64,000 nt of DNA, from positions 776,788 to 840,787 of the forward strand of contig CP064989.1 of NCBI GenBank assembly GCA_016699875.1, read 5' to 3'. A program made the position numbers and the translations under genes. Positions 685 through 54,349 of this stretch are shown piece after piece. How positions within the stretch are numbered: position 1 is the stretch's first letter; the number at the start of each line of letters is the position of its first letter. The notes below the pieces were generated by a model. It did no database searches, was not told the origin of the DNA, and saw nothing but the letters and a program-made list of their open reading frames with translations. Origin of the DNA: Candidatus Moraniibacteriota bacterium. Its GTDB lineage: Bacteria; Patescibacteriota; Minisyncoccia; Moranbacterales; UBA1568.

Positions 685-694
685 ATAAGAAAAT

Positions 695-1750: not shown

Positions 1751-1971
1751 GGAAGGTCAGAAGATGGGAGATAGAGGGTGGAAGATGGAAATTTGGAATT
1801 CAGGATACTAGGTTACGAATCATCCTACCTATTATATTAACTGTATTAACTCTTTTTCCGCTATTCCAATTCAACTCTTCCTTTCTATCTCCCGACCGAA
1901 GTGGAGGGATCTCAATCGCGTTAGTGATGCGGGAGAGAGAAGATGGGGGTTGGAAGGTAGGAGAGGGGGAA

Positions 1972-2457
1972 ATGAAAAATATGGCAAAATGTCAGATATT
2001 TAATATTCGGTACCCCAAAAGTTCTTCTCAGGGGTTTACAATCATTGAATTGCTACTCGTTGTAGCAATTTTCTTTGCTGTTGCTGGTTTTGCTCCAGCT
2101 TTTTACAACCGGTTTTTTTTACAAGATGCGGTAGTTGAAGCGGCTGATCGCATAGCGGGATCACTCCGAAATGCACAGGGATTTTCGCTTGCTGGGAAGG
2201 GGAGTCTTCCATGGGGAGTAGCTCTCAATGGTAATGCGGTTGTTTTGTTTCAGGGCAATTCATTCGCCACTCGGAATACAGCACTTGATCGGCAAATTGC
2301 TCTGCCTTCATCGGTGTCAATAAGTGGACTCAGCGAAACCGTTTTTGCTCGTGTGTCAGGGATGCCGACAGCGCCGCTCACGATTTCTCTTACTGCTTCT
2401 GGCGGCGTGTCGCGCAGCGTTCTCATGAACTCACTTGGCGTGGTGAGTCGGGAATAA
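1972..2457 (+). CDS. Type IV (pseudo)pilin-like protein with prepilin cleavage/methylation motif
   Basis: N-terminus ...KSSSQG|FTIIELLLVVAIFFAVAGFA is a class III signal peptide (G|FTxxE + hydrophobic helix); start chosen at ATG 1972 preceded by purine-rich RBS (ggtaggagaggggg); ORF track starts it at 1924. Confidence 0.75.
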   Translation: MKNMAKCQIFNIRYPKSSSQGFTIIELLLVVAIFFAVAGFAPAFYNRFFLQDAVVEAADRIAGSLRNAQGFSLAGKGSLPWGVALNGNAVVLFQGNSFATRNTALDRQIALPSSVSISGLSETVFARVSGMPTAPLTISLTASGGVSRSVLMNSLGVVSRE

Positions 2458-2505
2458 GGGCGATAAATGCCTTGCTTGAAGCGAGGGTAAATAATTGTGC
2501 TCATA

Positions 2506-2546
2506 AAAACAAAACAGGGAACGTTGAAACGTCCCTGTTTTGTTTT
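2506..2546. terminator. Bidirectional rho-independent terminator between convergent pilin gene and surface-protein gene
   Basis: Perfect 15-bp stem aaaacaaaacaggga / tccctgttttgtttt with 11-nt loop; A-run on one side, T-run on the other. Confidence 0.8.
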
Positions 2547-2579
2547 TTGCTGCCCTATCTAAATTCAATGCTCTACATG

Positions 2580-3030
2580 CTACATCCCCGCCCCCTGCAC
2601 CTGCCAGTAGAACGTAGAACACGTTGTGTCTCTGCATCCGCACTTCCATCGGCCTCCTTGTATACTGCAGGTCATACCAACCAGGTAGGCGGGATCGGAA
2701 GCGCTGGTTGTAGAGATATCGGTATCGGTGAGAGTGGTAGAGACACTTCCTTGGCACCAGTCTCCATTCAAGGCTCCGGTACAGGTTCCGGTGAAGGAGG
2801 TCCAGTCAGATATACCGGGATCATAGTAGTAGCCTTTGGTATAGACGATACGGGTAGTGTCTCCGGTGATACCGAGGGTGGCGTTTATCGTGTGGGTATC
2901 ACTGCTGGTACAGGTGGTGGAGATGAGAGGGGTGTTACTCACAAAGACGTCATAGGGGGCACCGTAGCCGGTGTAGGTTGAGGTGGTGAAGTTGGTGGGG
3001 GTGACGGTGGAGCAGGAGGTGGGGGTGGAG
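2580..3030. repeat. Left copy of ~450-bp inverted repeat (C-terminal cassette of surface protein); partner at 9197..9650
   Basis: Reverse complement of 2580-3030 aligns by eye to 9197-9650 with only ~11 substitutions; mirrored spurious ORFs in the six-frame track (2472..2981+ vs 9249..9479-; 2431..2757- vs 9473..9676+) confirm it. Confidence 0.85.
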
Positions 3031-5117: not shown

Positions 5118-5223
5118 ATTCTACAATTTTATGAAGCATATGAAGTAATTGTAGCACAATCCGTATGGAGGGTGAGAGAGTTTGACTGAGAGTTGTCAAT
5201 GATGAGGGTAGCTCTGGAAATAA

Positions 5224-5234
5224 TCTGATATACT
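5224..5234 (+). promoter_or_regulatory. Extended -10 promoter (cTGaTATACT) ending 6 nt before ATG 5241; implies leaderless mRNA
   Basis: TGnTATACT motif read at 5226-5234; no Shine-Dalgarno between it and the start codon. Confidence 0.45.
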
Positions 5235-5240
5235 ATCAAT

Positions 5241-9650: not shown

Positions 9651-9786
9651 GGGTGAATGGGATGGATAAAATGTGAAATGGGAGCGAGAGTCTTGCGCGG
9701 TGTTGTTTTGGATGGAGAGTCTGACTTATAGAAGTGCGAATGTGGTATACTTGAAACAAGTTCGGATTGTATGAAGAAAATATCGT

Positions 9787-11703
9787 ATGGGCATACAAGA
9801 CCTCGATGAGCAGCTTCATAAACACGATGGAACGCCGCGTGAGCCGTTATATCAAACAAAAGAATTCGATCCGAGTCGTGTTTCGAATGACGTTGAAAAG
9901 TTGTCACTTGAAAAAACAAGCGGATGGAGCGCTGTTCGTAAGCGGTTTGCAGTCGATCAAACAAAGGCGGTTCATCTCGGTATGTGGGCAATCGGCGTGA
10001 TTACCCTGGTAGCGCTTCTTGCGGGAACATTCGTTCGGATTCAACAGTCTTTATTTTCGCAAGATCGTGTGACTGTTTCCGTGACGGGACCGAGCAATGT
10101 GAATAGTTCGGATATCACGGATTTCGTCATCTCCTACGAGAATGCCAACCGATCGGGACTTGCTGATGCGGAATTGATCGTTTCTTATCCGCCGGGATTT
10201 ATTCCGGAAGGGAATGAAAGCACCTTCCGCAATGACGCTTCATCGAGCACGGTTACGATCGGCACTATTAATGCCTTTGAGAAAAAGACGCTTGACTTCT
10301 CCGGGAAGTTTTATGGGTCAAAAGATTCAATCGCGTATATTCACGCTGAATTGCGGTATCGACCGAACAACGTGCAGAGTCAATTCTCATCAGCCGGACA
10401 GAAGAGCGTCAACTTGAGGAGCGCATCACTTGCAGTAGAGCTGGAAGCGCCGCTTTCGGTACCGCCATCGGGAGAAGTGAATTATTTAGTGAATTACGAA
10501 AATACGAGCGATGCAACGCTTTCGAACATACGCATGAAAGCGGCATTTCCCTCAGGTTTTTCTCTCAATGATTCCGATCCGAAGCCGTCTGAAGGGGAAG
10601 TAGTATGGTATCTGGGAAGTATTGCTGCGGGCGAACGCGGGAAAATTCGCCTGACCGGAAATATGAGTGGCGTGCCCAATGAAACGAAGACGCTCAAAGT
10701 TGAGTTTGGAACCTTTCAGGGTGATAATACATTCTTTGCCTATAGCGATGCTGAGCGTACAACAAGAATAGTGGCAGCACCTTTCAGTATTCGACAGTCT
10801 TTGAATGGTTCGATGCCGGGAGCGGTAAATCCCGGTGATTCTTTGCGGTATACGGTGTCCTATCGAAATGACAGCGAGATAGCCTTGCGAGAAGCTATCA
10901 TCACCGTGGAATTGGAGGGGGATGCCCTTGATTTCTCCCAGCTTCGTCCGGAGAAAGGGGCTTATGATAGTCTTCGGAAAACGATTACTTGGAAAGCCTC
11001 TGATATCCAACAACTCGCAAATCTTACCTCGGGTGCTTCAGGGAAAGTCGAGTTTGCTGTGCCAGTTCGAGATGATCTTGTCCCGAAGAGTGTGCTGACA
11101 AAGAACTTCCAAATAAGGACAATAGCAAGAATTGAGAGTCCCGATGTTCCCAATCCAGCCGGAGCCAATAAAATTGTTGCAACCGATACAATGTGGGAAA
11201 AAGTGAATTCCCGACTCCTTCTCGAAACCGCTGGGTATTACCAGGACAGCACGCTGCCGAACACGGGTCCTATTCCTCCGGCAGTCGGCAAGAGCACTAC
11301 CTATACGATGCATTGGTTGTTGTCGAATACGACAAATGATGTGACGGGAGTGGAGGTGTCGGCTGATCTTCCAACCGGCGTCGCGTGGACCGGGAAAACG
11401 TTTCCGAATACTGAGAACATCTCTTATAACGAACGCACAAATAAGATTATATGGAATGTCGGGAGTCTTGGTGTTGGAGAGGGAATCCTTTCGCCAAAGC
11501 GAACCGTGGTTTTTCAGGTGTCAATCCGTCCGGAGGTAAACCAGGTGGATACGTCACCGTTGTTGCTCGGTATGTCATCTGCCAAGGCAACAGACGTCTT
11601 CACGAATGAGACGATTCAATCGACTGCATCGGAGAAAACAACGAACCTCCGAGAAGACGATTCTCTTCCTTCGAATAGCTCTCGGGTCGTGAATGGAGAA
11701 TAG
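9787..11703 (+). CDS. Membrane-anchored surface protein with four tandem DUF11/CARDB-like beta-sandwich repeats
   Basis: 638 aa; N-terminal cytoplasmic segment then TM (LGMWAIGVITLVALLAGTF); four ~110-aa repeats each with a 'VxYxxxYxNxS/G' pattern (VISYENANRSG; LVNYENTSDATLSN; YTVSYRNDSEIAL; TMHWLLSNTTNDVTG). Confidence 0.7.
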   Translation: MGIQDLDEQLHKHDGTPREPLYQTKEFDPSRVSNDVEKLSLEKTSGWSAVRKRFAVDQTKAVHLGMWAIGVITLVALLAGTFVRIQQSLFSQDRVTVSVTGPSNVNSSDITDFVISYENANRSGLADAELIVSYPPGFIPEGNESTFRNDASSSTVTIGTINAFEKKTLDFSGKFYGSKDSIAYIHAELRYRPNNVQSQFSSAGQKSVNLRSASLAVELEAPLSVPPSGEVNYLVNYENTSDATLSNIRMKAAFPSGFSLNDSDPKPSEGEVVWYLGSIAAGERGKIRLTGNMSGVPNETKTLKVEFGTFQGDNTFFAYSDAERTTRIVAAPFSIRQSLNGSMPGAVNPGDSLRYTVSYRNDSEIALREAIITVELEGDALDFSQLRPEKGAYDSLRKTITWKASDIQQLANLTSGASGKVEFAVPVRDDLVPKSVLTKNFQIRTIARIESPDVPNPAGANKIVATDTMWEKVNSRLLLETAGYYQDSTLPNTGPIPPAVGKSTTYTMHWLLSNTTNDVTGVEVSADLPTGVAWTGKTFPNTENISYNERTNKIIWNVGSLGVGEGILSPKRTVVFQVSIRPEVNQVDTSPLLLGMSSAKATDVFTNETIQSTASEKTTNLREDDSLPSNSSRVVNGE

Positions 11704-11746
11704 TGATCTGGTTCTTGACCGAGACTTTTGTTTCGGGGTAGGGTGA

Positions 11747-12913
<1,167 letters not shown>

Positions 12914-12940
12914 GAGGGACTGTCTCAGTGTGTCTGGGAT

Positions 12941-12969
12941 TTGACAATCTGAAAGGAACACTCTATACT
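12941..12969 (+). promoter_or_regulatory. Sigma70-type promoter TTGACA-17-TATACT upstream of rpoB leader
   Basis: ttgaca 12941-12946, 17-nt spacer, tatact 12964-12969; followed by ~300-nt untranslated leader before rpoB. Confidence 0.55.
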
Positions 12970-13266
12970 CCCATGACAGTCGAAATGAGAGCGAACTCTC
13001 AGGGAATCACGATCATGGACAGAAGCCCCTCGGAATTCGCAGCGGTTTGAAGTGGAGCCGGAAAAGGAAAAGATTGCAAAGCAAGGAAGGGGAAGATATG
13101 ATAGAAGGAGGAAGTGTACGAAAGGGTCTTTTTCAAGCGAATGTCAACGCTTCTGTCTCGGAGATATAACAATTCATTGTAAGCGAATCTAATTTCTCAT
13201 CTCCTGCCGTCTTTCGGGAGCGTTTTTTGTTCTCCGAGAGGCGGGAGAAGGGATGAGCGTCTTTCT

Positions 13267-16200
13267 ATGCCCAAAAAAGAAGCGGTCAGAAAAGAAGAGA
13301 AGGTACTGAAGATTCGCGATTCGTTTCGTTCGGGATCGTCCCTTTCGACGCGAAAATTCTTCAAGCGGCGCATTATGGTGTCGCTTCCGAACCTTATCGA
13401 CGTGCTTACAAGTTCGTACATGTGGTTTTGGGAGAAGGGTTTCAAAGAATTGCTCGAAGAAGTGAATCCTATCCGTGATTTTACCAATAAAGATCTGGAG
13501 CTTCGCTTGGGTGACTACTATCTTGACGAGCCGAAATACGATGAAGTGACCGCCAAAGCAAAGAACATTTCCTATGAGGCGCCGCTTCGCGCCAAGGCGA
13601 CGCTTACTTTCAAGAAAACGGGAGAAGTGAAAGATCAGGAGATTTATCTTGGCGAATTTCCGATCATGACCGATCGGGGGACATTTATTATAAACGGTGT
13701 TGAGCGCGTCGTTGTGAGTCAGTTGATTCGTTCTCCGGGAGCGTTCTTCACCATGAACTATCAGAAAGGTAAGAAGCTTTTCGGTGCAAAAATCATTCCG
13801 AATCGTGGCGCGTGGCTTGAGCTCGAGACCGATCTCGACGGAGTGATCTCTGCGAAGATAGATCGGAAGCGGAAGGTGCCGGTGACGGCGCTCTTGAAGG
13901 CGTTTGGCTGCGGCAATGACGAGACGCTCCGAGGTTTGTTTGCCGATACGGATACGGGGGAGGTGCGCTATATCGAGGAAACTCTCTCGAAGGATCCGAC
14001 TCGCACCCAGGGTGAAGGATACAAGGAAGTCTATAAGCGACTTCGTCCGGGTGACTTGGCGACCGAAGAAAATGCGAAGCAGATGATTGACTCGATGTTT
14101 TTCAATTACGAGCGCTACGATTTTGGAAGTGTTGGGCGGTATCGCCTCAATCAGCGGCTCGAAACGAACCGTGAAGACCTCGAGGCAAATCGCGTGCTGA
14201 ATGTCGATGACTTGGTGCTTATTATCCGCGAAATCATCAGGCTTAACAACGATCCGGAGGCGAGACCGGATGATATCGATCATCTGGGCAATCGCCGCGT
14301 GCGCGCCGTGGGTGAGCTTATTCAGAACAAGCTACGCGTAGGGCTCTATCGCATGGTGCGAAATATCAAGGATCGCATGAGTACTTGTGATGTTGAGACG
14401 GTGATTCCGGGACAGCTCATCAACCCGAGACCGGTCGCGGCAGCGGTGAAAGAATTTTTCTCGAGTTCGCAGCTTTCGCAGTTTATGGATCAGGTGAATC
14501 CGCTGGCAGAGCTTGAACACAAGCGCCGTCTCTCGGCAATGGGGCCGGGCGGACTTACGCGTGAGCGAGCGAGTTTCGAAGTGCGCGATGTGCACTCATC
14601 GCACTATGGGCGTATTTGTCCGGTGGAGACGCCGGAAGGACCGAATATCGGCTTGGTTGGACATATGGCGACCTATGCGCGCGTCAATGAATACGGATTT
14701 CTCGAGACTCCCTACTTGCGCGTCCAGAAAGATATCGCTGTTGAAGATGCTCAGGAATTGGTAGGAAGGATTCTGAACGAGCCAATTGCCGGCAATGAAG
14801 TCGGTACATTGATCGACGAATCACTTGCCGGGAAAATCGCAAGGGAGCGAAAGGGTGGCACGGTTCGAGTAAAACCGTTCATTACTCTCGCTATCGATTA
14901 TCTCAATGCTATTGTCGAAGATCGAAAAATTATCGCACATGCCGGTATCGAAACTGACGAGAAGAACAATATTCTGGAGCCGCTTGTTGAAGCTCGTGTG
15001 AATGGTCATCCGGAGATGATTGAGGCGGAGCGCGTAGACTATGTGGATGTTTCTGTGAAGCAGTGCATTTCCGTGGCAACCTCGCTCATTCCATTTTTGG
15101 AACATGACGATGCAAACCGCGCGCTCATGGGTTCGAATATGCAGCGCCAGGCGGTGTCTTGCGTGGTTCCTGACGCGCCGCTCGTGGGGACGGGTATTGA
15201 GGATAAGGCGGCGGCTGATTCCGGACAGGTGATTCTTGCTCGGCAAGATGGCGAAGTAATCGAGGTGGATGCGAGTCATGTGGTGGTAAGGGAATCGGCG
15301 CCGATCGGTTCGAAGAAGGCTCATTTTGATTATGTATACGCGCTCAAGAGTTTTGCCAAGTCAAACAATTTCACGAGCATGAACCAAGTGCCGCGTGTCG
15401 CGAAAGGGCAACTGCTCAAGAAAGGTGATCTCATTGCGGACGGTGCCTCGACGGATCGCGGCGAGTTGGCGCTCGGGCAGAACGTGGTTGTCGCATTTGT
15501 TCCGTGGCAGGGCTACAACTTTGAGGACGCCATCATCATGTCGGAGCGATTGCTGCATGAGGATCGCTACAGCTCTATTCATATCGAAGACTTTTCTCTT
15601 GATGTGCGCGACACGAAGCTTGGTCCCGAGGTAGTGACGCGCGATATCCCGAATATCGGTGAAGATCGTCTGAAGAACTTGGATGAACAGGGAATTATCC
15701 GTATCGGTGCCGAGGTGTCTTCCGGTGACATCCTGGTTGGGAAAATCTCCCCGAAGGGGGAGGGTGACCTCACGGCGGAAGAACGATTGCTTCGCGTTAT
15801 CTTTGGTGAGAAGTCGCGCGATGTGAAAGATTCGTCGCTGTACCTTCCACACGGTGAGCGCGGAAAGGTAGTGGATGTGAAGATATTTTCTCGAGAACAG
15901 GGCGACAAGCTCTCCATGGGCGTGTTTCAGCAGGTGCAGGTTTCGGTGGCGCAGCTTCGAAAGGTTTCGGTAGGGGATAAGTTTGCCGGCCGCCATGGAA
16001 ACAAAGGCGTGGTTTCTCGCATTGCGCCGATCGAAGATATGCCGTATCTCGAAGATGGTACGCCGGTTGACATGATCTTGAATCCGCTCGGCGTAGCGAG
16101 TCGTATGAACATCGGGCAGATTCTTGAAACACATCTCGGATGGGCGGCAAAGAAGCTTGGTTATACAGTGGCGACGCCGGCGCTCGATGGCGCGACTGAA

Positions 16201-46252: not shown

Positions 46253-46867
46253 TTGTGTATGGAAAACGTACAGAGAGAGCGGACACTGGTGATTATGAAA
46301 CCGGATGCGGTGCAGCGATCGCTCATGGGAGAAATCCTTGGACGATATGAGCGGAGCGGTCTCAAGTTGGTTGCTATGAAAATGCTTATCCCGACGCCCG
46401 AGATGGCGACGGAACACTACATGGTGGGCGGCGAAGAATGGCTTGAAAATGTCGGGAAGAAGGCGGCGGCTGCCTATGAGAAAAAAGGCGAGAAGTCTCC
46501 ATTCAAGACGTTCCGCGAGAATGGCATGGCGATTCTCAATTCGAATGCTACCTATCTTTCTGCTGGACCGGTTGTCGCGATGGTGTGGGAGGGAAACAGC
46601 GCGGTTGGCATCGTCCGGAAACTTACGGGAGCGACTGAGCCCTTGGGGAGTGATGTCGGGACGATTCGCGGAGACTTTACGGTAGATTCATACCAATTGG
46701 CTGATACAGGCAATCGTTCTATTCGCAATCTTATCCATGCGTCTGGCGATCCGTCGGAGGCTGAGAAGGAAATTCCCATCTGGTTTTCCGAGAAAGAAAT
46801 TCTCTCCTATAGGCACGTACAGGAAGCGATTCTCTATGACGTGAATCTGGACGGAATTTTGGAGTAG
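46253..46867 (+). CDS. ndk: Nucleoside diphosphate kinase (long form with insertion)
   Basis: ERTLVIMKPDAVQRSLMGEIL...NLIHASGD active-site His region. Confidence 0.8.
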   Translation: MCMENVQRERTLVIMKPDAVQRSLMGEILGRYERSGLKLVAMKMLIPTPEMATEHYMVGGEEWLENVGKKAAAAYEKKGEKSPFKTFRENGMAILNSNATYLSAGPVVAMVWEGNSAVGIVRKLTGATEPLGSDVGTIRGDFTVDSYQLADTGNRSIRNLIHASGDPSEAEKEIPIWFSEKEILSYRHVQEAILYDVNLDGILE

Positions 46868-46908
46868 GGAATATTCCGGTGTTTTACCGATTTGACGTTT
46901 GCTTTCAG

Positions 46909-46941
46909 ACCGACCTCTTTTTTGCAAGAGGTCGGTTTTTC
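46909..46941 (+). terminator. Rho-independent terminator after ndk
   Basis: 11-bp stem accgacctctt / aagaggtcggt + ttttt. Confidence 0.8.
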
Positions 46942-47582
46942 ATCCGGTATTGACAGAATCACAGAAAGGGCGCAAAGTGCCGGTAGATGGAGTAGTTCTT
47001 TTTCATAGGGAATTGGAGTGAGTTTCCGGTCCAATTTTTTTCTCGAGGGGAAAATCATGGCACAAAGACCAGATGTGGCTTTTTCGGATTTTATTGTGTT
47101 TAGTGCGCAGGCTTCGACTGCATTGGCTGCAGCTGCGTGGCGGGAGTGGATAAAGCATCTCGATGTACTTGCGTCGTGCACAGGTGTGAAAACATGCCGG
47201 TGGGCTCGTGCCAATGGGTTGAACCGCATCGGACAATCAAGAGTCTGAGTCTGATGAGGTCTGATTCATCCCGACATCGGGAATTACAATTTCACAAAGG
47301 CGAGTCTCATTTACAATAGGGATTCGCCTTTCTTCTTGACAGGAATTCTTCGTGTGGCATACTGTTGGCATGGCAACGTCGACGAACAATATTATGCGTG
47401 CGACAGGGTGGGGTCTTCGTGATCTCGTCCTCTTTGCGGGCGTCATTGCGCGCAAGCGGCATACATATTCGTCGGGGTTGTCCTAAAGGAGGAAAAAGGA
47501 AAGGAAGAAAGAAAAGGCACCCGACGAAAACGTTGGGATTTTTGTTGACTTAACAATACAAAAAGTTTGGAGGACGTTCTCT

Positions 47583-47774
47583 ATGACAACCGATGTCTCT
47601 ACAGATCAAGGAACATGTAAAGGGACAGCAGTGTCGCGCCGTACAGTAGGAGAAGGGTGGAAATGCTGCCACAGTTTCGTGAGGCCACCTGCATCATTCG
47701 ATTTCCCAGTGAAACAGGATGTCCTGGGAAATGAGTCTTCCGGCAGTCCATCTACCTCTCCATTGAAACCGTAA
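47583..47774 (+). CDS. Hypothetical small Cys-containing protein
   Basis: 63 aa; RBS ggagga 8 nt upstream; 4 Cys (CKG...CCH); in small 2-gene unit with next ORF; weak. Confidence 0.3.
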   Translation: MTTDVSTDQGTCKGTAVSRRTVGEGWKCCHSFVRPPASFDFPVKQDVLGNESSGSPSTSPLKP

Positions 47775-47785
47775 GAGGCAATAAA

Positions 47786-47998
47786 ATGCTATCACTATCT
47801 GACGAAGGTATTCCAGGTGCCGACAGCCTGCTTCGGTTTGAGCTAAGGGCTTTGTCAGTTTCCAGCGACCTTATTGACGTTGATGCTCGATTGAGTGACC
47901 CAAATACCCCCGAAGAAGAGAGGGGTGGGCTTCGTCGGAGGAAACAAGCTCTTCAACTCAAGATAGCTCAGCTGCAAGAGCAGGAAATCTATACATAA
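47786..47998 (+). CDS. Small coiled-coil protein, DUF465 (YdcH-like) pattern
   Basis: 70 aa; RBS aagagg; C-terminal RRRKQALQLKIAQLQEQE resembles DUF465 KKQKLxLKDE signature; followed by terminator at ~48053-48090. Confidence 0.45.
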   Translation: MLSLSDEGIPGADSLLRFELRALSVSSDLIDVDARLSDPNTPEEERGGLRRRKQALQLKIAQLQEQEIYT

Positions 47999-48127
47999 TG
48001 TAGGGATTTCACGGACAGTAACCCCCTCTAAAATAATGGGGATGTAACTTAAAAAAGGCGGTGCAAACATCATCGCCTTTTTGATTTTTCTTGGGGGGCG
48101 TGATAGGTTATGTGGGAGGTAAGAAGA

Positions 48128-48198
48128 ATATGTCATTCGGGCTGTAGTATACCGGTAGTACGCGTCCATGGGGTGGATGTAGACCGGGTTCAATTCCC
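48128..48198 (+). tRNA. tRNA-Pro (anticodon GGG)
   Basis: Hand-folded cloverleaf: acceptor CGGGCTG/CAGCCCG, D-stem GTAT/GTAC, anticodon stem CGTCC/GGATG with loop ATGGGGT (U33, GGG, G37), V-loop TAGA, T-arm CCGGG-TTCAATT-CCCGG, discriminator A; CCA not encoded. Confidence 0.6.
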
Positions 48199-48276
48199 GG
48201 CAGCCCGACAAGAGAGAGTGAGAGCTTTGGTTTGGTCTGTGGATCGCTCTGTATAAAATATACTTGCTGACTTAAC

Positions 48277-49088: not shown

Positions 49089-49817
49089 ATGTCGCCACAG
49101 GAATTTGTTCTCGTTGGATTCTACCTTGTCATTTTGCTCTATACCGTCATCATGCATGAGGTGGCGCATGGCGTTATTGCGCTCTGGCTTGGCGATAAGA
49201 CAGCGCAGTATTCGGGTCGGCTCACGCTCAATCCGGTATCGCATGTCGACTTTATGGGGTCGGTCGTGGTGCCGCTCATGATGTTTTTTACGACAGGTCT
49301 TGCATTCGGGTGGGCGAAGCCGGTGCCATACAATCCATACAATCTCAAGAATCAGAAGTGGGGGCCGGTGGTGGTTGCTTTTGCCGGGCCGGGGTCGAAC
49401 TTTCTCTTGGCATTCATTGCCGCGATCATCGCGCATATTCTTCCGGTGAGCCTTGCGGAGCGTCAGGATATTTTCGCTCGATTCTTTGGTATTATCGGGC
49501 GCGTCGGAGAATGGTCGGATCGATGGGGCGGATTTGCTGATGCGGTTGCCGGGTCACTGCCGGGAATTTTCCTCGGATTTCTTCTCATGATCATCTTCTG
49601 GAATGTGCTTCTTGGCGTGTTTAACATGGTGCCGATCCCGCCACTTGACGGCTCGAAGCTCTTGTATCCGCTGCTCTCGCTTCGCCCGGAAACGGTGATA
49701 TTTCTCGAACAATACGGATTCATCTTTCTCTTGCTTGTCATCTTCTCGCCCCTTGGCATCCTTATCCAATGGCCCCTCGGCATTTTCCTTGATTTCTTCC
49801 TGCGCATTGCAGCCTAA
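49089..49817 (+). CDS. M50-family (site-2 protease / SpoIVFB-like) membrane zinc metalloprotease
   Basis: 242 aa; HEVAHG (HExxH) in TM helix, NMVPIPPLDGSKL (LDG motif), polytopic. Confidence 0.8.
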   Translation: MSPQEFVLVGFYLVILLYTVIMHEVAHGVIALWLGDKTAQYSGRLTLNPVSHVDFMGSVVVPLMMFFTTGLAFGWAKPVPYNPYNLKNQKWGPVVVAFAGPGSNFLLAFIAAIIAHILPVSLAERQDIFARFFGIIGRVGEWSDRWGGFADAVAGSLPGIFLGFLLMIIFWNVLLGVFNMVPIPPLDGSKLLYPLLSLRPETVIFLEQYGFIFLLLVIFSPLGILIQWPLGIFLDFFLRIAA

Positions 49818-49868
49818 TCGCGTGCGCGCCTGACAGGTCTTATTTTCACCGGTAGAGCCCTCCAGTGT

Positions 49869-50492
49869 ATGAAACTTCAACGAACCCCAATCATTATCAT
49901 CTCAATTCTCACCTTGCTTCTTGTCGGAGCGGGGGTGTTTTGGTATGGGAAGGCTCAATGGACAAAGTCGCAAGAAACTCAGAATAAATCTGCTGATGTG
50001 ACAATTCCTGCAAACCAGCCATCTGCCAGCGACCCCCAAGCTGAACAAGAACAAGCTTGGTATCAAATTCCCGAGTTGGGAATCGAGATTCAATTGCCGA
50101 AAGATATTGCCGATGATTTGGTGTATATGTATGAAGAACGGCCTATTACGAAGTATAATGGTGAGAGGCATGTTCCAGTGAAGGGAGTTACAAAAAAACT
50201 TGCTTTGTTTTCAACGAGAACACTCGTCAAATTCGATAGCAGGAATTGTTCTTTGGAAATTGCTCCGGCTGGTATTATAAGTCGAGAAGAAGGAGAGCAG
50301 ATTAAGGAGAATCCACAGGTGAATTCTTGGGTAGGTCCGGCATTGGCATTCGATTCGTTTTACGTGTATTATGAGGGTTCTCAAGCGGCCTGCACGAATG
50401 ACCAGGAGATGCTGGATTACAATAGTAGGGTGATGGTTTCCCTAGGTACTCCGTTCCGAGAAGAACTAGGGAGAATTCGAGAGATACGGTAG
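49869..50492 (+). CDS. Hypothetical N-terminally anchored extracytoplasmic protein (paralog family A)
   Basis: 207 aa; N-terminal 30 aa (MKLQRTPIIIISILTLLLVGAGVFWYG) ~95% nt-identical to start of 50860..51516; rest unrelated. Confidence 0.55.
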   Translation: MKLQRTPIIIISILTLLLVGAGVFWYGKAQWTKSQETQNKSADVTIPANQPSASDPQAEQEQAWYQIPELGIEIQLPKDIADDLVYMYEERPITKYNGERHVPVKGVTKKLALFSTRTLVKFDSRNCSLEIAPAGIISREEGEQIKENPQVNSWVGPALAFDSFYVYYEGSQAACTNDQEMLDYNSRVMVSLGTPFREELGRIREIR

Positions 50493-50581
50493 AAGGGGCG
50501 GAAAAATGTATTTTCAAAGAGATTTCTAAAACATTGGAAGTCTCCAGAGAATGCCTCGTCAAAACGAAACAGGAGAAGGTC

Positions 50582-50824
50582 ATGAATCGTTCGTTAACAA
50601 TTCTCCCGGTTGTTCTGGGAATGTTTGGAGTTATGTGTCCGATAGTCGTCTCGGCTGGGTTGGACTTAGGATATGAAAATTCCAAGAAAGTCGGTGGTTT
50701 ATGTCCGAGCGTATGGACAGTGGAAAGAAAGATGGATGGCTCATGGGGATTTGCCGCTTGCAACTGTACCTCATACGTTGCCTATCGACTCAATCTCAAT
50801 GGGCTGGCTCGCTTTGGTTCTTGA
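50582..50824 (+). pseudogene. Truncated remnant of a secreted CHAP-type amidase (only signal peptide and start of catalytic Cys region remain)
   Basis: Signal peptide MNRSLTILPVVLGMFGVMCPIVVSAG; ends ...GFAACNCTSYVAYRLNLNGLARFGS* - CTSYV resembles the CHAP catalytic Cys motif (QCTWYV) but the His-containing remainder is absent; stop overlaps downstream promoter. Confidence 0.4.
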
Positions 50825-50849
50825 CACATTCGAATCCCTTCGGTAGTAT
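50821..50849 (+). promoter_or_regulatory. Strong sigma70-type promoter TTGACA-17-TAGTAT, 10 nt upstream of ATG 50860 (leaderless-type)
   Basis: ttgaca 50821-50826, 17-nt spacer, tagtat 50844-50849; identical hexamer pair to the rpsL promoter. Confidence 0.6.
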
Positions 50850-50859
50850 CTGAAAACAT

Positions 50860-51516
50860 ATGAAACTTCAACGAACCCCGATCATTATCATCTCAATTCT
50901 CACATTGCTTCTTGTCGGAGCTGGGGTGTTTTGGTGTGGGCTGAGTAATATTGGCAAGCAAAGCGTTTTGGATGACGAATGGAAGACGGTCCGCGGTGAT
51001 GATCTTCAGTGGCAAAAGAATCAGAAGGGCTGGATGAACATTTCTTTTCTAATCCCGGAGTTAGCGCAAGTTGACGAGGTGTTCATGGCTGATAGTGACA
51101 ATGTCCACAGTCTCAGTGTTGATCTTTCGCATATTTCCCCCTTCTCTCTCGTGAGTGTTTCTCCTATTGCTCATGTTTTTTCGGATAGCGGGAGAGTTTC
51201 TATTATTGAGGAAACTTTGCGAGATGTTGAACTTGGGGGGTTCTCAAAAGAATTTACTTACACACATGAATATAAAGCGTTTGCTCATGTACGAGGTATC
51301 CAATTTGACCCAATTGCTATAGATGGTGTGTCAGATGTTTCTAGGGATATGTATATTCCGGCATATATTCTTGTGAAGACAAAAGCTGACGTAGGTAAGG
51401 GTGAATATTCGATATATCGATTTTCTCTCCAGTATAATAGTAGTATCAGAACTACTCAGATGGAAGAATTGGATCGAGCGTTTATTAAGATGTTGGACTC
51501 TGTTGAGGTTCTGTAG
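50860..51516 (+). CDS. Hypothetical N-terminally anchored extracytoplasmic protein (paralog family B)
   Basis: 218 aa; shares duplicated N-terminal anchor with 49869 gene; C-terminal domain unrelated. Confidence 0.55.
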   Translation: MKLQRTPIIIISILTLLLVGAGVFWCGLSNIGKQSVLDDEWKTVRGDDLQWQKNQKGWMNISFLIPELAQVDEVFMADSDNVHSLSVDLSHISPFSLVSVSPIAHVFSDSGRVSIIEETLRDVELGGFSKEFTYTHEYKAFAHVRGIQFDPIAIDGVSDVSRDMYIPAYILVKTKADVGKGEYSIYRFSLQYNSSIRTTQMEELDRAFIKMLDSVEVL

Positions 51517-51647
51517 AAAAGTGCTAAGCAGGAGTGGCATTGCAAGAGACATGAGAATCAGTTTCTTGTGGTGTCTGACTGGTATTGGCAAGAAGTATTT
51601 CTTGGTGTACTGAGAGTGTTGTTTAAAAACCTAGAGGAGGTTCCTTT

Positions 51648-53339
51648 ATGTCTTTGCGTAGAAGTGCCCTTTCTTTGTTGATAGGACTTTTCTCGCTGGA
51701 AGCGCTAGCGGGACAACCGAGTCTTAAACTCCCATTTGAAGCTGGAGTGACTATTCGTGTGTCTCACGGGTACTGGTCGTTGTCAGGGAATGATCCATCT
51801 GATAGTCATGCAGCGCCTTCGGATCGTTTTGCACTTGACTTTGTTGGCTCTGGCGGTAGCGGTTGCGAGATATTTGGAACATCTGTTGTAGCAGCTCAGA
51901 CAGGCGTAGTTTCAAAGGTTGTTCGGGGTAAGTCCGCCGTATTTCCGGTTTCGAGGAGGGGGATTGCAGATGGCTATGGAAACTATATTATCCTCGATCA
52001 CGGAGACGGCTACTTTACTCGCTATGCTCATTTGAGCGAAGTAGATGATAGGGTCCAAGTTGGCGCCCCTGTAATTCAGGGGTATTCTATTGGAAAAGTT
52101 GGTGACACTGGATATGCAGTTGGATCTGTCTGCTCAAATAGTCATGCAGGTGTCCATCTCCACTTTGCTTTATATAAGGATGGGAATGGTAAAAGTCCAG
52201 AACCAATGAGTGGATATGTTGGCTTCCTGAGCGGGAACTCGTATACGTCTGACAATGGTCAGAGTGCTTGGGCGAAAGCGAAGACATCAACATTGGTTGA
52301 TGAGAACCGCTGGATATACTGGAAAATGAATGCGAGTGACCCTACATGTACCGCTGGTTCAAATCATGTTATCGATGATATGGATAGGGGTATCTGCATT
52401 CAAGTGTCGAGCGAAAGTTGCCCGGAGTCTGCATTCTTTGTGACCGTAGACGATGTGTTTGGGGGATCGTTTGAGGATCAGTCCGCATCTCCCCCTATCA
52501 CCGGCGGCAAACATTCCGGCGACCTTCCCAACCTCATCGTTCACGAATTGTATCTCGTGAAAGATGCTGACAGCAACAGTCCACATCTCTCCCAAATCCA
52601 TATCGGAGAGCGAAGCTACTGCAATATCCAGGTGAAAAACACCGGAGAGGCCGGAGCTTGGGACGAGTGGGCGAATCGGTGCTATCTGTCCAAGGGAAAC
52701 TATCGCGACCACGATCCCGACAATCTTGGACACGAGAGTATGGACGACTTGGCGGCGGGACAATCCCGCCGGGTTTATCAAATCATCCCTCCTTTCGAAT
52801 ATCCGGGAACCTTCAACATCACCGCGTGCGCGGATACGGATGGAAGCAGTGGGGACAAGGCGGTTACGGAATCCGACGAAGGCGACAATTGCTATGACGA
52901 GGTTCGGTTCACGGTGGTGAGCGATCCCGATGTGGCGGTGACGGGCTTGAGTCTGAATACGACCGTATTGGAAGCGACTGTCGCCAATATCGGGGAGAAT
53001 TTCGGTCCGGATGTTGTCCGTATTTCCTACGCTGTTGATGGTGCTTTTGTTGGATTTGATCAAGTGAAGAGGGAAAACCTCAAAGGAGGCATGTCCAAAG
53101 TTGAAAGCGTCGATATATCCCAAGTCGTTGCCGAAACCGGCACACATACGGCTCGGGCGTGTATCGACTATGACAGTCAGATTGTAGAGGTGAATGAGGT
53201 GAATAACTGCAAAGATCTGACATTTGTCGTTCAAGGCGCGTCCGTTCCTGCAACCGGTCCGGATCCCGATGCGGTACCAACAAAGACGCCTTCGACCAAG
53301 CAGGCGAGTCCGGCGGCTTTGCAACTGCTATTCGATTGA
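51648..53339 (+). CDS. Secreted M23-family (LytM/lysostaphin-type) peptidoglycan endopeptidase fused to two CARDB-like domains
   Basis: 563 aa; signal peptide; M23 motifs GNYIILDHGDGYFTRYAHL and HLHF; two C-terminal ~110-aa repeats with CARDB pattern (VKNTGEAGA...ESDEGDNCY; VANIGENFG...VNEVNNC). Confidence 0.8.
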   Translation: MSLRRSALSLLIGLFSLEALAGQPSLKLPFEAGVTIRVSHGYWSLSGNDPSDSHAAPSDRFALDFVGSGGSGCEIFGTSVVAAQTGVVSKVVRGKSAVFPVSRRGIADGYGNYIILDHGDGYFTRYAHLSEVDDRVQVGAPVIQGYSIGKVGDTGYAVGSVCSNSHAGVHLHFALYKDGNGKSPEPMSGYVGFLSGNSYTSDNGQSAWAKAKTSTLVDENRWIYWKMNASDPTCTAGSNHVIDDMDRGICIQVSSESCPESAFFVTVDDVFGGSFEDQSASPPITGGKHSGDLPNLIVHELYLVKDADSNSPHLSQIHIGERSYCNIQVKNTGEAGAWDEWANRCYLSKGNYRDHDPDNLGHESMDDLAAGQSRRVYQIIPPFEYPGTFNITACADTDGSSGDKAVTESDEGDNCYDEVRFTVVSDPDVAVTGLSLNTTVLEATVANIGENFGPDVVRISYAVDGAFVGFDQVKRENLKGGMSKVESVDISQVVAETGTHTARACIDYDSQIVEVNEVNNCKDLTFVVQGASVPATGPDPDAVPTKTPSTKQASPAALQLLFD

Positions 53340-53360
53340 CGAGAAGAGGAGTAAGAAGAG

Positions 53361-53672
53361 ATGAAGAAATACATCGTTGCCTTTCTGGCAACGTTTTTAA
53401 CCGTTGCCAATGCGGCTCAGTCGGCGGAGATTATGTTCAACCCGAGCGCCCTCTGGTACGATGTGACGAGCGAAGGCGTCTTGGAACTCTGGGGCGTTCC
53501 GGAAGCGAACGGGCAAGCTCTGCAGGCGAACCCGGACTATGACTGGCCGTCGGTCAATACCGTTTCCCTCTGGACAGGCATGCTTCTCAAAGCGCAAGAA
53601 ATGGGGCTGAGTGTGCCAGTCGGGTATGATCCGGGAAATCTGGATATCTGGTATATCGGAAAGCCGAGGTAG
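53361..53672 (+). CDS. Small secreted hypothetical protein
   Basis: 103 aa; lipobox-less signal peptide MKKYIVAFLATFLTVANA|AQ; 21 nt downstream of M23 gene. Confidence 0.5.
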   Translation: MKKYIVAFLATFLTVANAAQSAEIMFNPSALWYDVTSEGVLELWGVPEANGQALQANPDYDWPSVNTVSLWTGMLLKAQEMGLSVPVGYDPGNLDIWYIGKPR

Positions 53673-53828
53673 TAATGGCTTGAAATGAAAGAAAAGAATC
53701 AATGGAATGTTTTTGTGGTCTTTGACCCTGTCGGTATGGCGGGGTCTTTTATTTTTGGAGATTGGGGAGCTATTGCTACATGTGGGAGAATTTGTGCAGC
53801 AGGCTGTCGGGAGCTGTCGTGCGGTTGC

Positions 53829-53857
53829 TTGACAAGAGCAAGAACTTCCCGTAGTAT
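53829..53857 (+). promoter_or_regulatory. Sigma70-type promoter TTGACA-17-TAGTAT for rpsL-rpsG-fusA operon
   Basis: ttgaca 53829-53834, 17-nt spacer, tagtat 53852-53857; ~70-nt leader to GTG start. Confidence 0.65.
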
Positions 53858-53932
53858 CGGGAAGCAAGCGAGTTGTCGCTTTTTTGTTCGTATTGCTCCG
53901 GAATATCTTATTTGTCTTTAAGTTTTACTCCT

Positions 53933-54349
53933 GTGCCGACACTGAATCAGCTGGTCCGCCGTCCGCGGGTCTCATCCACCAAGAAGTCGAAGTCGCCCGC
54001 GTTTGGGTTTGTGATGAATACGCTTAAGAATCATCCGACCAATTCAACGGGTCCCTACAAGCGCGGGGTGTGTCTCAAAGTTTCGACGACAACGCCGAAG
54101 AAGCCGAACTCCGCTCTCCGCAAGATCGCGCGCGTCCGCCTGACCAACGGTATGGAAGTGACGGCATATATCCCTGGTATCGGACACAATTTGCAAGAGC
54201 ACTCCATTGTGATGATTCGCGGCGGTCGCGTGAAAGATCTTCCGGGGGTGCGCTACCATATCGTACGGGGCGTGCTTGATGCCTCAGGTGTTGCCGATCG
54301 CAAGCGCAGCCGCTCGAAGTACGGTGCAAAGCGTCCGAAGGAAGCCTAG
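53933..54349 (+). CDS. rpsL: 30S ribosomal protein S12
   Basis: GTG start giving [12 protein letters not shown]...; [31 protein letters not shown]; ORF track's upstream Met extension (53873) is implausible. Confidence 0.92.

Follow-up and report, generated by a model that had tools for sequence, protein, structure and literature searches.

Sequence comparison reveals a polymorphic architecture at a peptidoglycan hydrolase locus of a Ca. Moraniibacteriota bacterium (Patescibacteria), a tiny, host-dependent organism. In these alignments, the variable unit consists of the ectodomain of a membrane-anchored protein (A) together with the signal peptide and catalytic head of the adjacent hydrolase, and it is exchanged by homologous recombination at conserved handles. 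On the 5' side the handle combines a promoter-like junction of 53 nt with the initial 82 nt common to all A genes; on the 3' side it is either a 57-nt stretch at the catalytic-Cys motif of CHAP or the point where the CARDB tail begins. In the window, i.e. the whole stretch of 64,000 nt analysed here, an A2 + M23 cassette is joined to a tail that three close relatives have in a CHAP enzyme.

Gene content of the insert

The cluster adjoins ribosomal genes and lies in a lineage-specific insert downstream of a gene with a Pfam match to Peptidase_M50 (2e-12). The five genes that an earlier note on this DNA had described were all found as ORFs on the + strand (Table 1). In blastn alignments, L002, the closest genome without the insert at the M50/rpsL site (its M50 gene is 86% identical to that of the window), aligns with the window as far as 49816 and again from 53818, and the M50-rpsL gap is at most 400 nt (median 205) in 47 of 54 relatives. 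A locus conserved as a divisome or autolysin cluster, the contrary outcome named by the earlier note, is not what was observed, since the insert is lineage-specific and varies even between near-identical strains. A scan for promoter, Shine-Dalgarno sites and terminator frames A2, the M23-CARDB gene and P103 as a single unit. The independent Logan assembly L001, 99.7% identical over 50944-53977 of the window, confirms the order A2(part)-M23-CARDB-P103-rpsL; the order A1-stub-A2 in the window comes from one long contig of one assembly, and its junction sequence was found again in three other assemblies.

Table 1. Features of the insert (positions in the window)
Feature	Position	Strand	Basis
Insert, ~4.0 kb, lineage-specific	49818..53817	+	between M50 protease gene (49089-49817) and rpsL promoter region
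Handle h1 copy 1, A1 5' end, encodes MKLQRTPIIIISILTLLLVGAGVFW	49868..49949	+	direct repeat D1, 82 nt, 95%
A1, 207 aa, membrane-anchored, one N-terminal TM helix	49869..50492	+	ORF, hydropathy
CHAP stub, signal peptide and N-terminal region to catalytic-Cys motif	50582..50824	+	likelier ATG start
Handle h2, 57 nt, encodes CHAP Cys motif (FAACNCTSYVAYRLNLNGL), crossover point	50750..50806	+	96% identity L092/L093
Junction J, 53 nt, non-coding, promoter-like TTGACA-17-TAGTAT at 50821-50849	50807..50859	+	promoter scan
Handle h1 copy 2, A2 5' end	50859..50940	+	direct repeat D1
A2, 218 aa, membrane-anchored, predicted Mog1/PsbP-like alpha/beta ectodomain	50860..51516	+	ORF, AF2 model
M23-CARDB protein, 563 aa	51648..53339	+	ORF, Pfam
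M23-CARDB: signal peptide and M23 catalytic head, aa 1-221	51648..52310	+	Pfam M23 3.2e-18
M23-CARDB: Cys-containing middle domain, aa 222-283, travels with head type	52311..52496	+	identity pattern
M23-CARDB: constant tail, aa 284-563	52497..53339	+	Pfam CARDB x2, identity to CHAP-CARDB tails
P103, 103 aa, small Sec-secreted protein, own AGGAG ribosome-binding site	53361..53672	+	ORF
Terminator-like hairpin, 10-bp stem and T-run, ends cluster ahead of rpsL promoter	53724..53756	+

A1 and A2 each carry one N-terminal hydrophobic segment (Kyte-Doolittle 19-residue maximum 2.4-2.6), with model helices at residues 7-39 and 8-29, respectively. A1 matches no Pfam family and its model is poor (pLDDT 59). 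The AF2 model of A2 has a pLDDT of 80 overall and of about 90 over residues 41-218, and its best Foldseek matches in the PDB are CyanoP/PsbP (E 7e-4, TMt 0.51), 3lyd and Apa; the A2 ectodomain is predicted on this basis to be a non-enzymatic, PsbP-like binding fold. Only 7 relatives of A2 occur among 1.84 billion representatives. As had been proposed, the two ectodomains show no detectable sequence similarity behind a common N-terminus, which recombines, and the duplicated gene start (put at ~90 nt and ~95% in the earlier note) is a repeat with 78/82 identical positions that begins 1 nt ahead of each ATG and is far beyond chance. The A genes are intact (dN/dS 0.23-0.28).

Between A1 and A2 lies the presumed remnant of a CHAP amidase, whose nature is borne out by its first ~91 residues, which share 94.6% identity with the N-terminal end of a complete CHAP-CARDB protein (575 aa) of L063. 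The latter matches Pfam CHAP (7e-10, residues 72-170) and CARDB, and the stub alone has no Pfam match. Mechanical ORF calling gave 50534-50824 from a TTG at 50534; an ATG at 50582, giving MNRSLTIL..., is the likelier start. The stub stops just past the catalytic-Cys motif (AACNCTSYVAYRLN) and lacks ~80% of the CHAP domain, so it is probably non-functional. Its DNA homology to the intact CHAP gene ends at 50806. The stub is the leftover of a head swap, in which A1 and the first 91 CHAP codons were displaced upstream; A1 can be regarded as an orphan in the window because its CHAP neighbour is truncated.

The combination of an M23 domain and two CARDB domains was recovered as described earlier (Peptidase_M23 at 66 bits against a cut-off of 28.7; CARDB 3.1e-15 in two stretches). 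In the head, D64, H118, H128, H170 and H172 are invariant and H54 occurs in 15 of 15 subfamily members. The tail comprises the two CARDB domains, a Pro-rich linker and a C-terminal peptide ...AALQLLFD. Read from the sequence, the signal peptides of this protein (..EALA/GQ) and of P103 (..ANA/AQ) look cleavable. The fusion itself, thought to be uncommon, recurs in several Moraniibacteriota (L095/96, L098, P0016). Homologues of the window tail are very rare, with 2 matches in the indexed protein database.

Cassette exchange between conserved handles

The window head is 59% identical to that of the L095 M23-CARDB protein, and the middle domain is 57% identical to the L095 M23 version against 32% to CHAP versions. 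The tail, in contrast, shares 93% aa identity with the CHAP-CARDB tails of L063/L092 and only 42% with that of the L095 M23-CARDB protein, and DNA homology to L063/L092/L093 restarts at 52500, which marks the breakpoint. With a CHAP-type tail under an M23 head, the window protein is therefore a head-swapped chimera.

At the same M50/rpsL site, L063 carries A2'-CHAP fragment-A1-intact CHAP-CARDB-P103 and L092/L093 carry A2''-CHAP fragment-A3-CHAP-CARDB-P103. Downstream from h2, L063 and L092 share 98.7% identity (rpsG dS 0.02), whereas between h1 and h2 the A1 + CHAP-N1 tract of the former and the A3 + CHAP-N2 tract of the latter are unrelated, the end of the swap falling exactly at h2. The h1 segment begins A1, A2 and A3 in L063, L092 and L093, and the identity of h2 holds for both the remnant and the intact CHAP copies of L092/L093. 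The window, L063, L092 and L093 agree at every position of J (100%) and at 95% over h2-J-h1; the promoter-like hexamers of J end 10 nt ahead of the A2 start codon, and both are repeated upstream of rpsL (53829-53857). A second case of a head swapped with its partner was found in a lake lineage, in which L085 has an A1-like gene with CHAP and L098 another A type with M23, and similarity between the two is confined to the 5' end of the A gene (85%) and to the tail (82% nt, 80% aa).

Values of dS within the cassette (A1 0.108 against its L063 homologue, with dN/dS 0.23; CHAP-N 0.123; A2 0.28-0.48; M23-CARDB tail 0.36) are 2- to 10-fold below those of the flanking core genes (M50, rpsG and fusA, 1.00-1.07), which points to repeated exchange between lineages.

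Linkage of anchored genes and P103 to the hydrolase

Each of the 12 hydrolase loci examined (window, L063, L092/93, L082-84, L088, L085-87, L095/96, L098, L101, L102, L103, L104) has an A-type gene immediately upstream and in the same orientation; together, these loci represent at least 6 different genomic sites. A comparison of gene neighbourhoods, as the earlier note had proposed, showed that, where a hydrolase is present, A1-like genes accompany CHAP exclusively and A2-like genes accompany M23 exclusively. Homologues of A1 (46-94% identity) directly precede CHAP-CARDB genes in L063, L082-84, L085-87 and L088, and in L095/L096 and L104 an A2-like gene directly precedes the M23 head. More than one A type goes with each kind of head (a many-to-one pairing): A1, A3 and the L101 type with CHAP, A2 and the L098 type with M23. 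The CHAP catalytic domains next to A1 and to A3 share 94% identity, their differences being confined to the first ~60 residues. The variants L088 and L093 come from one sample (ERZ28614207).

P103 starts 21 nt past the M23-CARDB stop, as noted earlier, and has no family or PDB match. Copies that are 89% identical lie downstream of the CHAP-CARDB genes of L063/L092/L093, and 122-aa versions (77-81% identical) downstream of those of L082/L088; its dN/dS is 0.06. It stays with the constant tail when the head changes from CHAP to M23. P103 had been viewed as the partner of the hydrolase, but it is a poor candidate for a head-specific inhibitor because it keeps to the CARDB tail and not to the head.

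Possible function and related systems

We favour, at about even chances, a swappable A + head cassette whose enzyme acts on foreign peptidoglycan, with A as its likely inhibitor and P103 serving the tail. The locus would supply one putative Sec-secreted hydrolase, made of a head and middle domain on the constant 2xCARDB tail, and this predicted extracellular wall-cutting enzyme would be aimed at the peptidoglycan of the host or of rival epibionts, with the tail as surface-targeting part. The A protein, oriented N-in with its ectodomain out, would be a head-specific binding partner that most probably inhibits the hydrolase at the producer's own surface, and it is from such a position that we infer a role in self-protection or immunity; retained orphan A genes may protect against enzymes of co-occurring kin. 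P103 might act in folding, docking or release of the tail rather than on the head. A displaced catalytic stub beside orphan anchored genes is typical of polymorphic effector/immunity loci. The resemblance to toxin/immunity systems that had been remarked on earlier holds for the variability, the co-swapped A and head, the stub and the orphan A genes; it does not extend to A1, A2, A3 and P103 themselves, for which no match to a known immunity or inhibitor family was found, nor to secretion, as only Sec signals and no specialised secretion marker were detected, which counts against an effector/immunity reading. The dN/dS values of 0.2-0.3 likewise indicate purifying and not positive selection and count against an arms race. 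The many-to-one pairing of A types with heads and the A-type arrays that lack a hydrolase (L089-91, L097) also weigh against the favoured reading.

Less probable, yet the strongest competitor, is a housekeeping autolysin with its regulator, in which the enzyme would remodel or split the cell's own wall, A would tether, activate or restrain it, P103 would be an accessory and head swaps would be ordinary modular shuffling of lytic enzymes without a role in cell-cell conflict. A small genome needs an autolysin of its own, and the activity may be self-directed. The module is co-directional with surrounding housekeeping genes, each locus has one complete hydrolase only, secretion relies on Sec alone, every part is under purifying selection, and related modules occur at various sites in many Moraniibacteriota, most genomes of which may carry one; moreover, autolysins and endolysins are well known to shuffle their domains. 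Against this stand the whole-cassette differences between the near-identical L063 and L092, the inter-lineage exchange indicated by dS, the altered catalytic chemistry that a change from CHAP to M23 entails, the orphan A genes that stay intact although their enzyme is missing (A1 in the window, A2 in L063/L092/L093), and L002, where the locus is dispensable.

It is improbable that the A genes are linked to the hydrolase only incidentally, as members of a large and rapidly evolving family of surface-anchored proteins (perhaps adhesins or proteins for host recognition) with a common recombining promoter and 5' end, in which adjacency would reflect co-transcription or recombination hitch-hiking and not a protein-protein relationship. 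A-type arrays without any hydrolase (L089-91, L097), from which the A genes may be a general surface-protein family, agree with this, as do the tandem A paralogues with identical N-termini in L088 and L101, a similar W..Y....G.x.x.P strand motif opening several A ectodomains, and a pairing with heads that is not one-to-one. Such a view, however, leaves the invariable upstream position of the A gene unexplained, together with the fact that A1-like genes with M23 and A2-like genes with CHAP were never seen and that ectodomain and head were swapped as a single tract in two independent lineages. Very improbable indeed is the remnant of a prophage or mobile-element lysis cassette (endolysin plus membrane proteins), since, despite matches of the M23 head to PHROG endolysin, tail and peptidase families and a T5orf172 gene upstream of the module in L098, these matches are generic for M23 with none for A1, A2, P103 or the CHAP-CARDB protein, no relative of the tail is present in the viral contig collection, the insert and its surroundings contain no gene for an integrase, capsid or terminase and none of holin size, and all three proteins bear Sec signals or anchors, unlike canonical endolysins.

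The favoured reading, an exchangeable enzyme with its anchored inhibitor, finds its nearest parallels in the killing-domain/immunity pairs of CdiA-CT/CdiI, Rhs and colicin/S-pyocin systems, in which a variable catalytic domain is likewise joined to an invariant part for delivery or targeting, a small neighbouring gene is co-exchanged with that domain at conserved handles, stubs of displaced catalytic domains pile up beside the expressed gene together with orphan partner genes that are still intact, and variants differ among near-identical strains. The present locus is, however, their mirror image, with the variable part at the N-terminus, the constant part at the C-terminus and the putative partner encoded upstream. 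This partner is membrane-anchored and ~200 aa long (A2 with a predicted PsbP-like fold) and not a small soluble immunity protein, and the locus has a Sec signal only, without T5/T6/T7 or Rhs/VENN-type markers. Lysostaphin and zoocin A are Sec-secreted M23 heads with a C-terminal targeting domain (SH3b/TRD) that act on the walls of other bacteria, and their producers carry an adjacent self-protection gene for FemABX-like wall modification (Lif/Epr, Zif). The window enzyme shares the secreted M23 head on a C-terminal targeting part but has 2xCARDB, and a FemABX-like gene is absent; we know of no cassette exchange in the lysostaphin/zoocin A systems. Peptidoglycan hydrolase effectors of T6SS and T7SS (Tae/Tai, Tse1/Tsi1; TelC/TipC) are encoded next to an extracytoplasmic, binding-type immunity protein, which in the case of TipC is membrane-anchored at a monoderm surface. 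An amidase or endopeptidase beside an extracytoplasmic protein is also seen here, but the dedicated secretion machines are absent and there is no sequence or fold relationship. In phage endolysins and autolysins, CHAP and M23 modules replace one another on an unchanging module that binds the wall or surface, as do the heads described here, where in contrast there is no phage context, the ectodomain of the upstream gene is co-swapped and the repeated handles are defined.

For a CPR predator, it has been proposed that secreted peptidoglycan hydrolases serve as weapons against the host wall (PMC8080830). In Bdellovibrio, the secreted peptidoglycan DD-endopeptidase Bd3459 is blocked by the contiguous ankyrin protein Bd3460, which protects the producer (PMC4686830). 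That pair resembles the present one in joining a secreted endopeptidase to a contiguous partner gene in a host- or prey-dependent bacterium, but Bd3459 is of PBP4 type and not CHAP/M23, Bd3460 is an ankyrin and not a PsbP-like anchored protein, and the Bdellovibrio locus is conserved and not polymorphic.

Content and position of the gene cluster

Five ORFs were recovered between a gene encoding an M50 protease (Peptidase_M50 in Pfam) and rpsL, exactly where the earlier note had placed them. A1 and A2, which encode anchored proteins, begin with a direct repeat of 82 nt (95% identity; handle h1) that starts one base 5' of each ATG, so that the duplicated gene start described in that note holds, as do the unrelated C-terminal domains: homology between the two ectodomains was rejected because profile-profile comparison aligned only a 29-residue N-terminus. 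Both products have a single N-terminal hydrophobic helix, and their ectodomains should, by prediction, face outward since K/R residues just precede it. M23C, which joins an M23 peptidase domain to two CARDB domains, and the small P103 each carry a cleavable-looking Sec signal peptide and a good Shine-Dalgarno site. No family match was obtained in Pfam, NCBIfam, PHROGs or PADLOC for A1, A2, P103 or the short ORF between the A genes, the first three being left without a housekeeping assignment. PADLOC gave no anti-phage defence match either, and the only non-coding RNA in or around the cluster is tRNA-Pro. Further upstream, an interval of ~1.27 kb between an ndk-like ORF and tRNA-Pro(GGG) holds no convincing ORF and has no Rfam match even at E<=0.1.

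Coordinates of features in the window and in related loci
Locus	Feature	Position	Strand
Window	ndk-like ORF	46253-46867	
Window	Interval next to tRNA-Pro	46868-48137	
Window	tRNA-Pro(GGG)	48138-48209	
Window	Insert	49817-53817	
Window	A1 (IPK84_03995, Ca. Moraniibacteriota MAG)	49869-50492	+
Window	96-codon short ORF (CHAP stub)	50534-50824	+
Window	End of homology to intact CHAP gene	50806	
Window	Promoter-like site in J	50821-50849	
Window	A2 (IPK84_04005, same MAG)	50860-51516	+
Window	M23C, 563 aa	51648-53339	+
Window	M23C residues 54-64	51807-51839	
Window	M23C breakpoint	52500	
Window	Tail-end peptide	53295-53339	
Window	P103, 103 aa	53361-53672	+
Window	Hexamer pair before rpsL	53829-53857	
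L003	Junction cargo	4712-5476	
L024	Junction cargo	672-2271	
L045	Junction cargo	10679-13670	
L075	Junction cargo	10502-12943	
L079	Junction cargo	10526-13212	
L082	Tail-end peptide	10392-10424	
L083	Split CHAP-CARDB gene	8533-9800	
L088	Tandem A paralogues	85-1482	
L089	Anchored-gene array	257-4805	
L095	Two-Cys small protein	4025-4351	
L098	T5orf172/MUG113-domain gene	267-956	
L101	Tandem A paralogues	3481-5343	
L102	Two-Cys small protein	4456-4776	
L103	Two-Cys small protein	2228-2946	

In M23C, residues 77-180 belong to peptidase family M23 (PF01551; 66.2 bits against a curated gathering score of 28.7, E 3.2e-18) and two stretches to CARDB (PF07705; 56.6 bits against 22.7, E 3.1e-15), both in Pfam; the head, i.e. 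the catalytic part, matches solved M23 enzymes including ShyA, DipM and zoocin A (E 1e-4 to 2e-7). The zinc/catalytic residue set (HxxxD, the H of the YxHL segment, HxH) was checked, and D64, H118, H128 (RYAHL) and H170/H172 (HLH) are invariant in the 15 aligned members of the subfamily. The canonical His of HxxxD, four residues before D64, is Arg in M23C and non-His in 13 of these members, and each of the 15 carries a His 7-10 residues upstream (H54 in M23C), which suggests a shifted zinc ligand. A dead M23 head, as the Arg might imply, was rejected on the same grounds, and the head is likely to have the predicted active site.

A search with the M50 protein retrieved 80 loci, every one from Patescibacteria, with L28-M50-rpsL-rpsG-fusA as a conserved block. 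The M50-rpsL gap is at most 400 nt in 47 of the 54 loci holding both genes (median 205 nt) and ~4.1 kb in the window. Since the two genes are adjacent in most relatives and the insert is absent from L002 (86% M50 identity), alignment with which gives its limits, the cluster is a lineage-specific insertion in a ribosomal-protein neighbourhood, variable among relatives. It is not a conserved autolysin or divisome locus, the case that, together with housekeeping assignments of A1, A2 and P103, the earlier note had set against its own reading. Insertions at the same junction recur in other Patescibacteria, where the cargo is unrelated and includes, by labels read from sequence only, pilin-like, MazG-like, ParB-like and deaminase-like proteins and a 640-aa secreted metalloprotease-like protein with a HicB-like gene. 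In the window, a strong terminator-like hairpin lies 3' of P103.

Exchange of cassettes between conserved handles

At the same site, the closest relative (L063, 95% M50 identity) carries in order A2' (80%), a CHAP fragment, A1 (94%), an intact 575-aa protein, P103 (89%) and rpsL. The 575-aa protein combines a CHAP domain (residues 72-170, E 7e-10) with two CARDB domains (Pfam), and the product of the short ORF of the window matches its residues 1-92 at 94.6% identity; in the window, DNA homology to the intact gene ends just past the catalytic-Cys motif. On these two grounds the short ORF is a true truncated CHAP gene, as had been proposed; in Pfam it has no match to CHAP (PF05257), only the part up to the Cys motif being present, and it is a remnant and not a member enzyme. 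As for M23C, residues 284-563 are 93% identical to the CHAP-CARDB tail (the part with two CARDB domains) of L063. Its head (aa 1-221; 59% identity) and its middle domain, which contains Cys (aa 222-283; 57%), instead match the M23-CARDB protein of another Moraniibacteriota contig, L095, the tail of which is only 42% identical to that of the window. M23C is thus a head-swapped chimera. A search of a word-indexed protein database with the tail returned only two matches and missed known relatives, so that rarity estimates drawn from it are weak. In L083 (GCA_049289275.1), the CHAP-CARDB gene is split into ORFs of 83 and 326 aa, and in the near-identical L082 and L088 it is a single ORF of 550/568 aa; the split represents a further natural inactivation or else a misassembly.

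Two other members of the clade, L092 and L093, have the order A2'', CHAP fragment, A3, CHAP-CARDB, P103 and rpsL, and the anchored gene A3 has only a 28-residue N-terminus in common with A1 and A2. L063 and L092 could almost be one strain (98.7% identity starting at the CHAP Cys motif, a dS of 0.02 in rpsG, P103 identical), and what lies between h1 and h2, a 57-nt CHAP Cys-motif segment, is unrelated: A1 with a CHAP N-terminus of type 1 in L063, A3 with type 2 in L092. The A ectodomain and the head lie within one exchanged tract. A further handle, J, is a junction of 53 nt that separates each upstream CHAP fragment from the A gene after it; the window, L063, L092 and L093 have it at 100% identity. 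It includes a promoter-like site, TTGACA-17-TAGTAT, the -10 element of which ends 10 nt before the A2 ATG, so that a near-leaderless A2 transcript is predicted; the same hexamer pair precedes rpsL.

Divergence of cluster and neighbouring genes between the window and L063 (A2 also against L092)
Gene or part	dS	dN/dS
M50	1.00	<=0.03
rpsG	1.02	<=0.03
fusA	1.07	<=0.03
P103	0.87	0.06
A1	0.108	0.23
CHAP N-terminus	0.123	0.19
A2	0.28-0.48	0.23-0.28
CARDB tail	0.36	0.10

Set against the divergence of the surrounding genome, the transfer of cassette parts between lineages is far more recent, and purifying selection still acts on these parts. These comparisons show a recombining locus in which an A ectodomain and a hydrolase head are inherited and exchanged as one unit between conserved handles, variable catalytic heads (CHAP, M23) being carried on tails that are 93% identical within the clade; a second lineage shows the same pattern. 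Cassette exchange has left behind displaced stubs and orphan anchored genes, namely a CHAP stub beside an intact A1 in the window, and an intact A2 with CHAP fragments in L063, L092 and L093. Several multi-step unequal crossing-over paths at h1/h2 fit the order of events between the window and L063 equally well. Taken alone, this architecture and its evolutionary account are held with high confidence. The main rival to an effector/immunity-type reading, an autolysin accompanied by a membrane regulator, is weakened both by this strain-level turnover of cassettes and by the retention of orphan A genes, yet it is still plausible.

The module at other genomic sites

A1-like genes (46-51% identity) lie directly upstream of CHAP-CARDB in three other settings: between tyrS and pheS in L082-84, where a 122-aa P103 homologue comes next, after dnaJ in L085-87, and in L088, where there are two tandem A1 paralogues with identical N-termini. 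In L095/L096 and L104, the gene just before an M23 head is A2-like (42-45% identity). Within a lake metagenome lineage, L085 (A1-like with CHAP) and L098 (another A type with M23) have in common only the 5' end of the A gene (85%) and the CARDB tail (82% nt), an independent instance of the same head swap. Directly upstream of the module in L098 is a T5orf172/MUG113-domain gene, of a type often found in mobile or phage contexts. Two tandem A genes precede the CHAP-CARDB gene of L101, and in L102 and L103, whose M23 proteins are more distant, the hydrolase gene again follows an anchored gene and is itself followed by one or two genes for small secreted proteins. The tandem paralogues of L088 and L101 begin with N-terminal anchors that are the same or nearly so, and their ectodomains have diverged (71% identity in L088); the 5'-end homogenisation of A genes is therefore general.

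Comparison of the hydrolase gene neighbourhoods placed an A-type gene immediately upstream in 12 of 12 distinct loci, at six or more genomic sites. Across independent loci A1-like genes go with CHAP and A2-like genes with M23, in a pairing that is many-to-one and not strictly one-to-one, several A families serving one head type. A merely incidental linkage of A genes and hydrolases, which is less likely, would be favoured by the A2-like and A1-like-domain genes of an anchored-gene array devoid of hydrolase (L089-91); in L097 an A-type gene stands beside another anchored gene. In L089 (Logan SRR16938232) this array comprises four to five anchored A-type genes with a LexA-like neighbour; one product, of 348 aa, has two A1-like domains, and an A2-like gene and the 251-aa type that precedes CHAP-CARDB in L101 are also present. 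The array could be an island of orphan partners or a mere surface-protein family.

Anchored proteins as candidate partners of the hydrolases

The effector/immunity-type reading of the earlier note stands as regards the polymorphic architecture, which is demonstrated, and stays conditional in immunity function and target. The A protein would be a head-specific partner, most plausibly a surface-anchored inhibitor for self-protection, of an enzyme directed at foreign walls, and the CARDB tail would direct this enzyme to a surface. The modelled A2 ectodomain (confident, pLDDT ~90) resembles a non-enzymatic Mog1/PsbP-like binding fold, with Foldseek matches to CyanoP/PsbP, 3lyd and Apa, and more weakly to DUF1795/SciW (probability 1.0, E 7e-4 to 1e-2, TM 0.4-0.56). 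A single weak match of A2 in a viral structure library, to a "host cell surface-exposed lipoprotein" (TMq 0.44, rmsd 20 A), was not relied on, and structure searches with the poor A1 model (pLDDT 59) gave no fold match. Once immunity is included, we regard the full statement as evenly balanced. A wider proposal is only tentative, namely that Patescibacteria possess a Sec-dependent, mirror-image polymorphic peptidoglycan-hydrolase/immunity system, in which cassettes of A ectodomain plus head recombine, with a portable promoter-plus-anchor handle as one boundary and a constant CARDB tail as the other, host or rival walls are attacked, and orphan A genes and hydrolase-free arrays such as L089 are acquired immunity islands.

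As in polymorphic toxin/immunity loci, a variable catalytic domain is borne by a conserved non-catalytic part, next to a co-exchanged gene and to displaced or orphan modules, but the layout is inverted relative to the classical one: the variable part is N-terminal and the partner gene lies upstream. Polymorphic toxin systems have a trafficking domain or a dedicated secretion system, whereas the secretion signals found here are Sec-type only, and Pfam and NCBIfam give M23 and CARDB and no dedicated secretion or trafficking domain (T5SS/T6SS/T7SS, Rhs, LXG and similar). Lysostaphin/zoocin-type bacteriolysin loci have a FemABX-like immunity gene beside the M23 gene; unlike them, the five ORFs include none (Pfam, NCBIfam), and adjacent gene products match no known immunity family (Pfam, NCBIfam, PADLOC). 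A functional precedent is provided by Bd3459/Bd3460 of Bdellovibrio (PMC4686830). In the CPR predator Vampirococcus, secreted hydrolases with no adjacent protector have been proposed as host-wall weapons, the attack being inferred only from their presence (PMC8080830). Literature searches combining CARDB with either M23 or the Candidate Phyla Radiation found nothing relevant. A phage origin as a lysis cassette was rejected, as PHROGs gave generic M23 matches only and the viral contig collection held no relative.

The locus is of clear interest for Patescibacteria biology, since it bears on how ultra-small host-dependent cells breach or remodel the walls of others without self-harm. It offers candidate enzyme/partner pairs, in which the M23 head would belong with A2 and the CHAP head with A1 or A3, and a defined recombination mechanism with exact handles, the natural swap variants being usable as controls. 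Should the partners prove to inhibit the enzymes, the Candidate Phyla Radiation would have its first candidate effector/immunity cassette system, one that mirrors the polymorphic-toxin architecture; should they not, the locus would still document cassette exchange at strain level within an otherwise highly conserved ribosomal-protein neighbourhood of a reduced genome.

P103, which had been put forward as a putative inhibitor, is reassigned to a tail-linked accessory: it is unchanged when the head changes, from which we infer that it serves the tail. It had no match among PDB sequences, and its membership in a two-Cys family of small secreted proteins was not supported, hhalign having aligned a similar-looking helix with a probability of only 1.4%. 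Members of this two-Cys family lie downstream of other M23 versions, in L095, L102 and L103. Finally, the hydrolase tails of the window, L082, P0015 and P0016 end, after a Pro-rich linker, in a short hydrophobic peptide (...ASPAALQLLFD, ...LQLLFN, ...ILNLLLND, ...IINMILED) that may be a docking or sorting signal.
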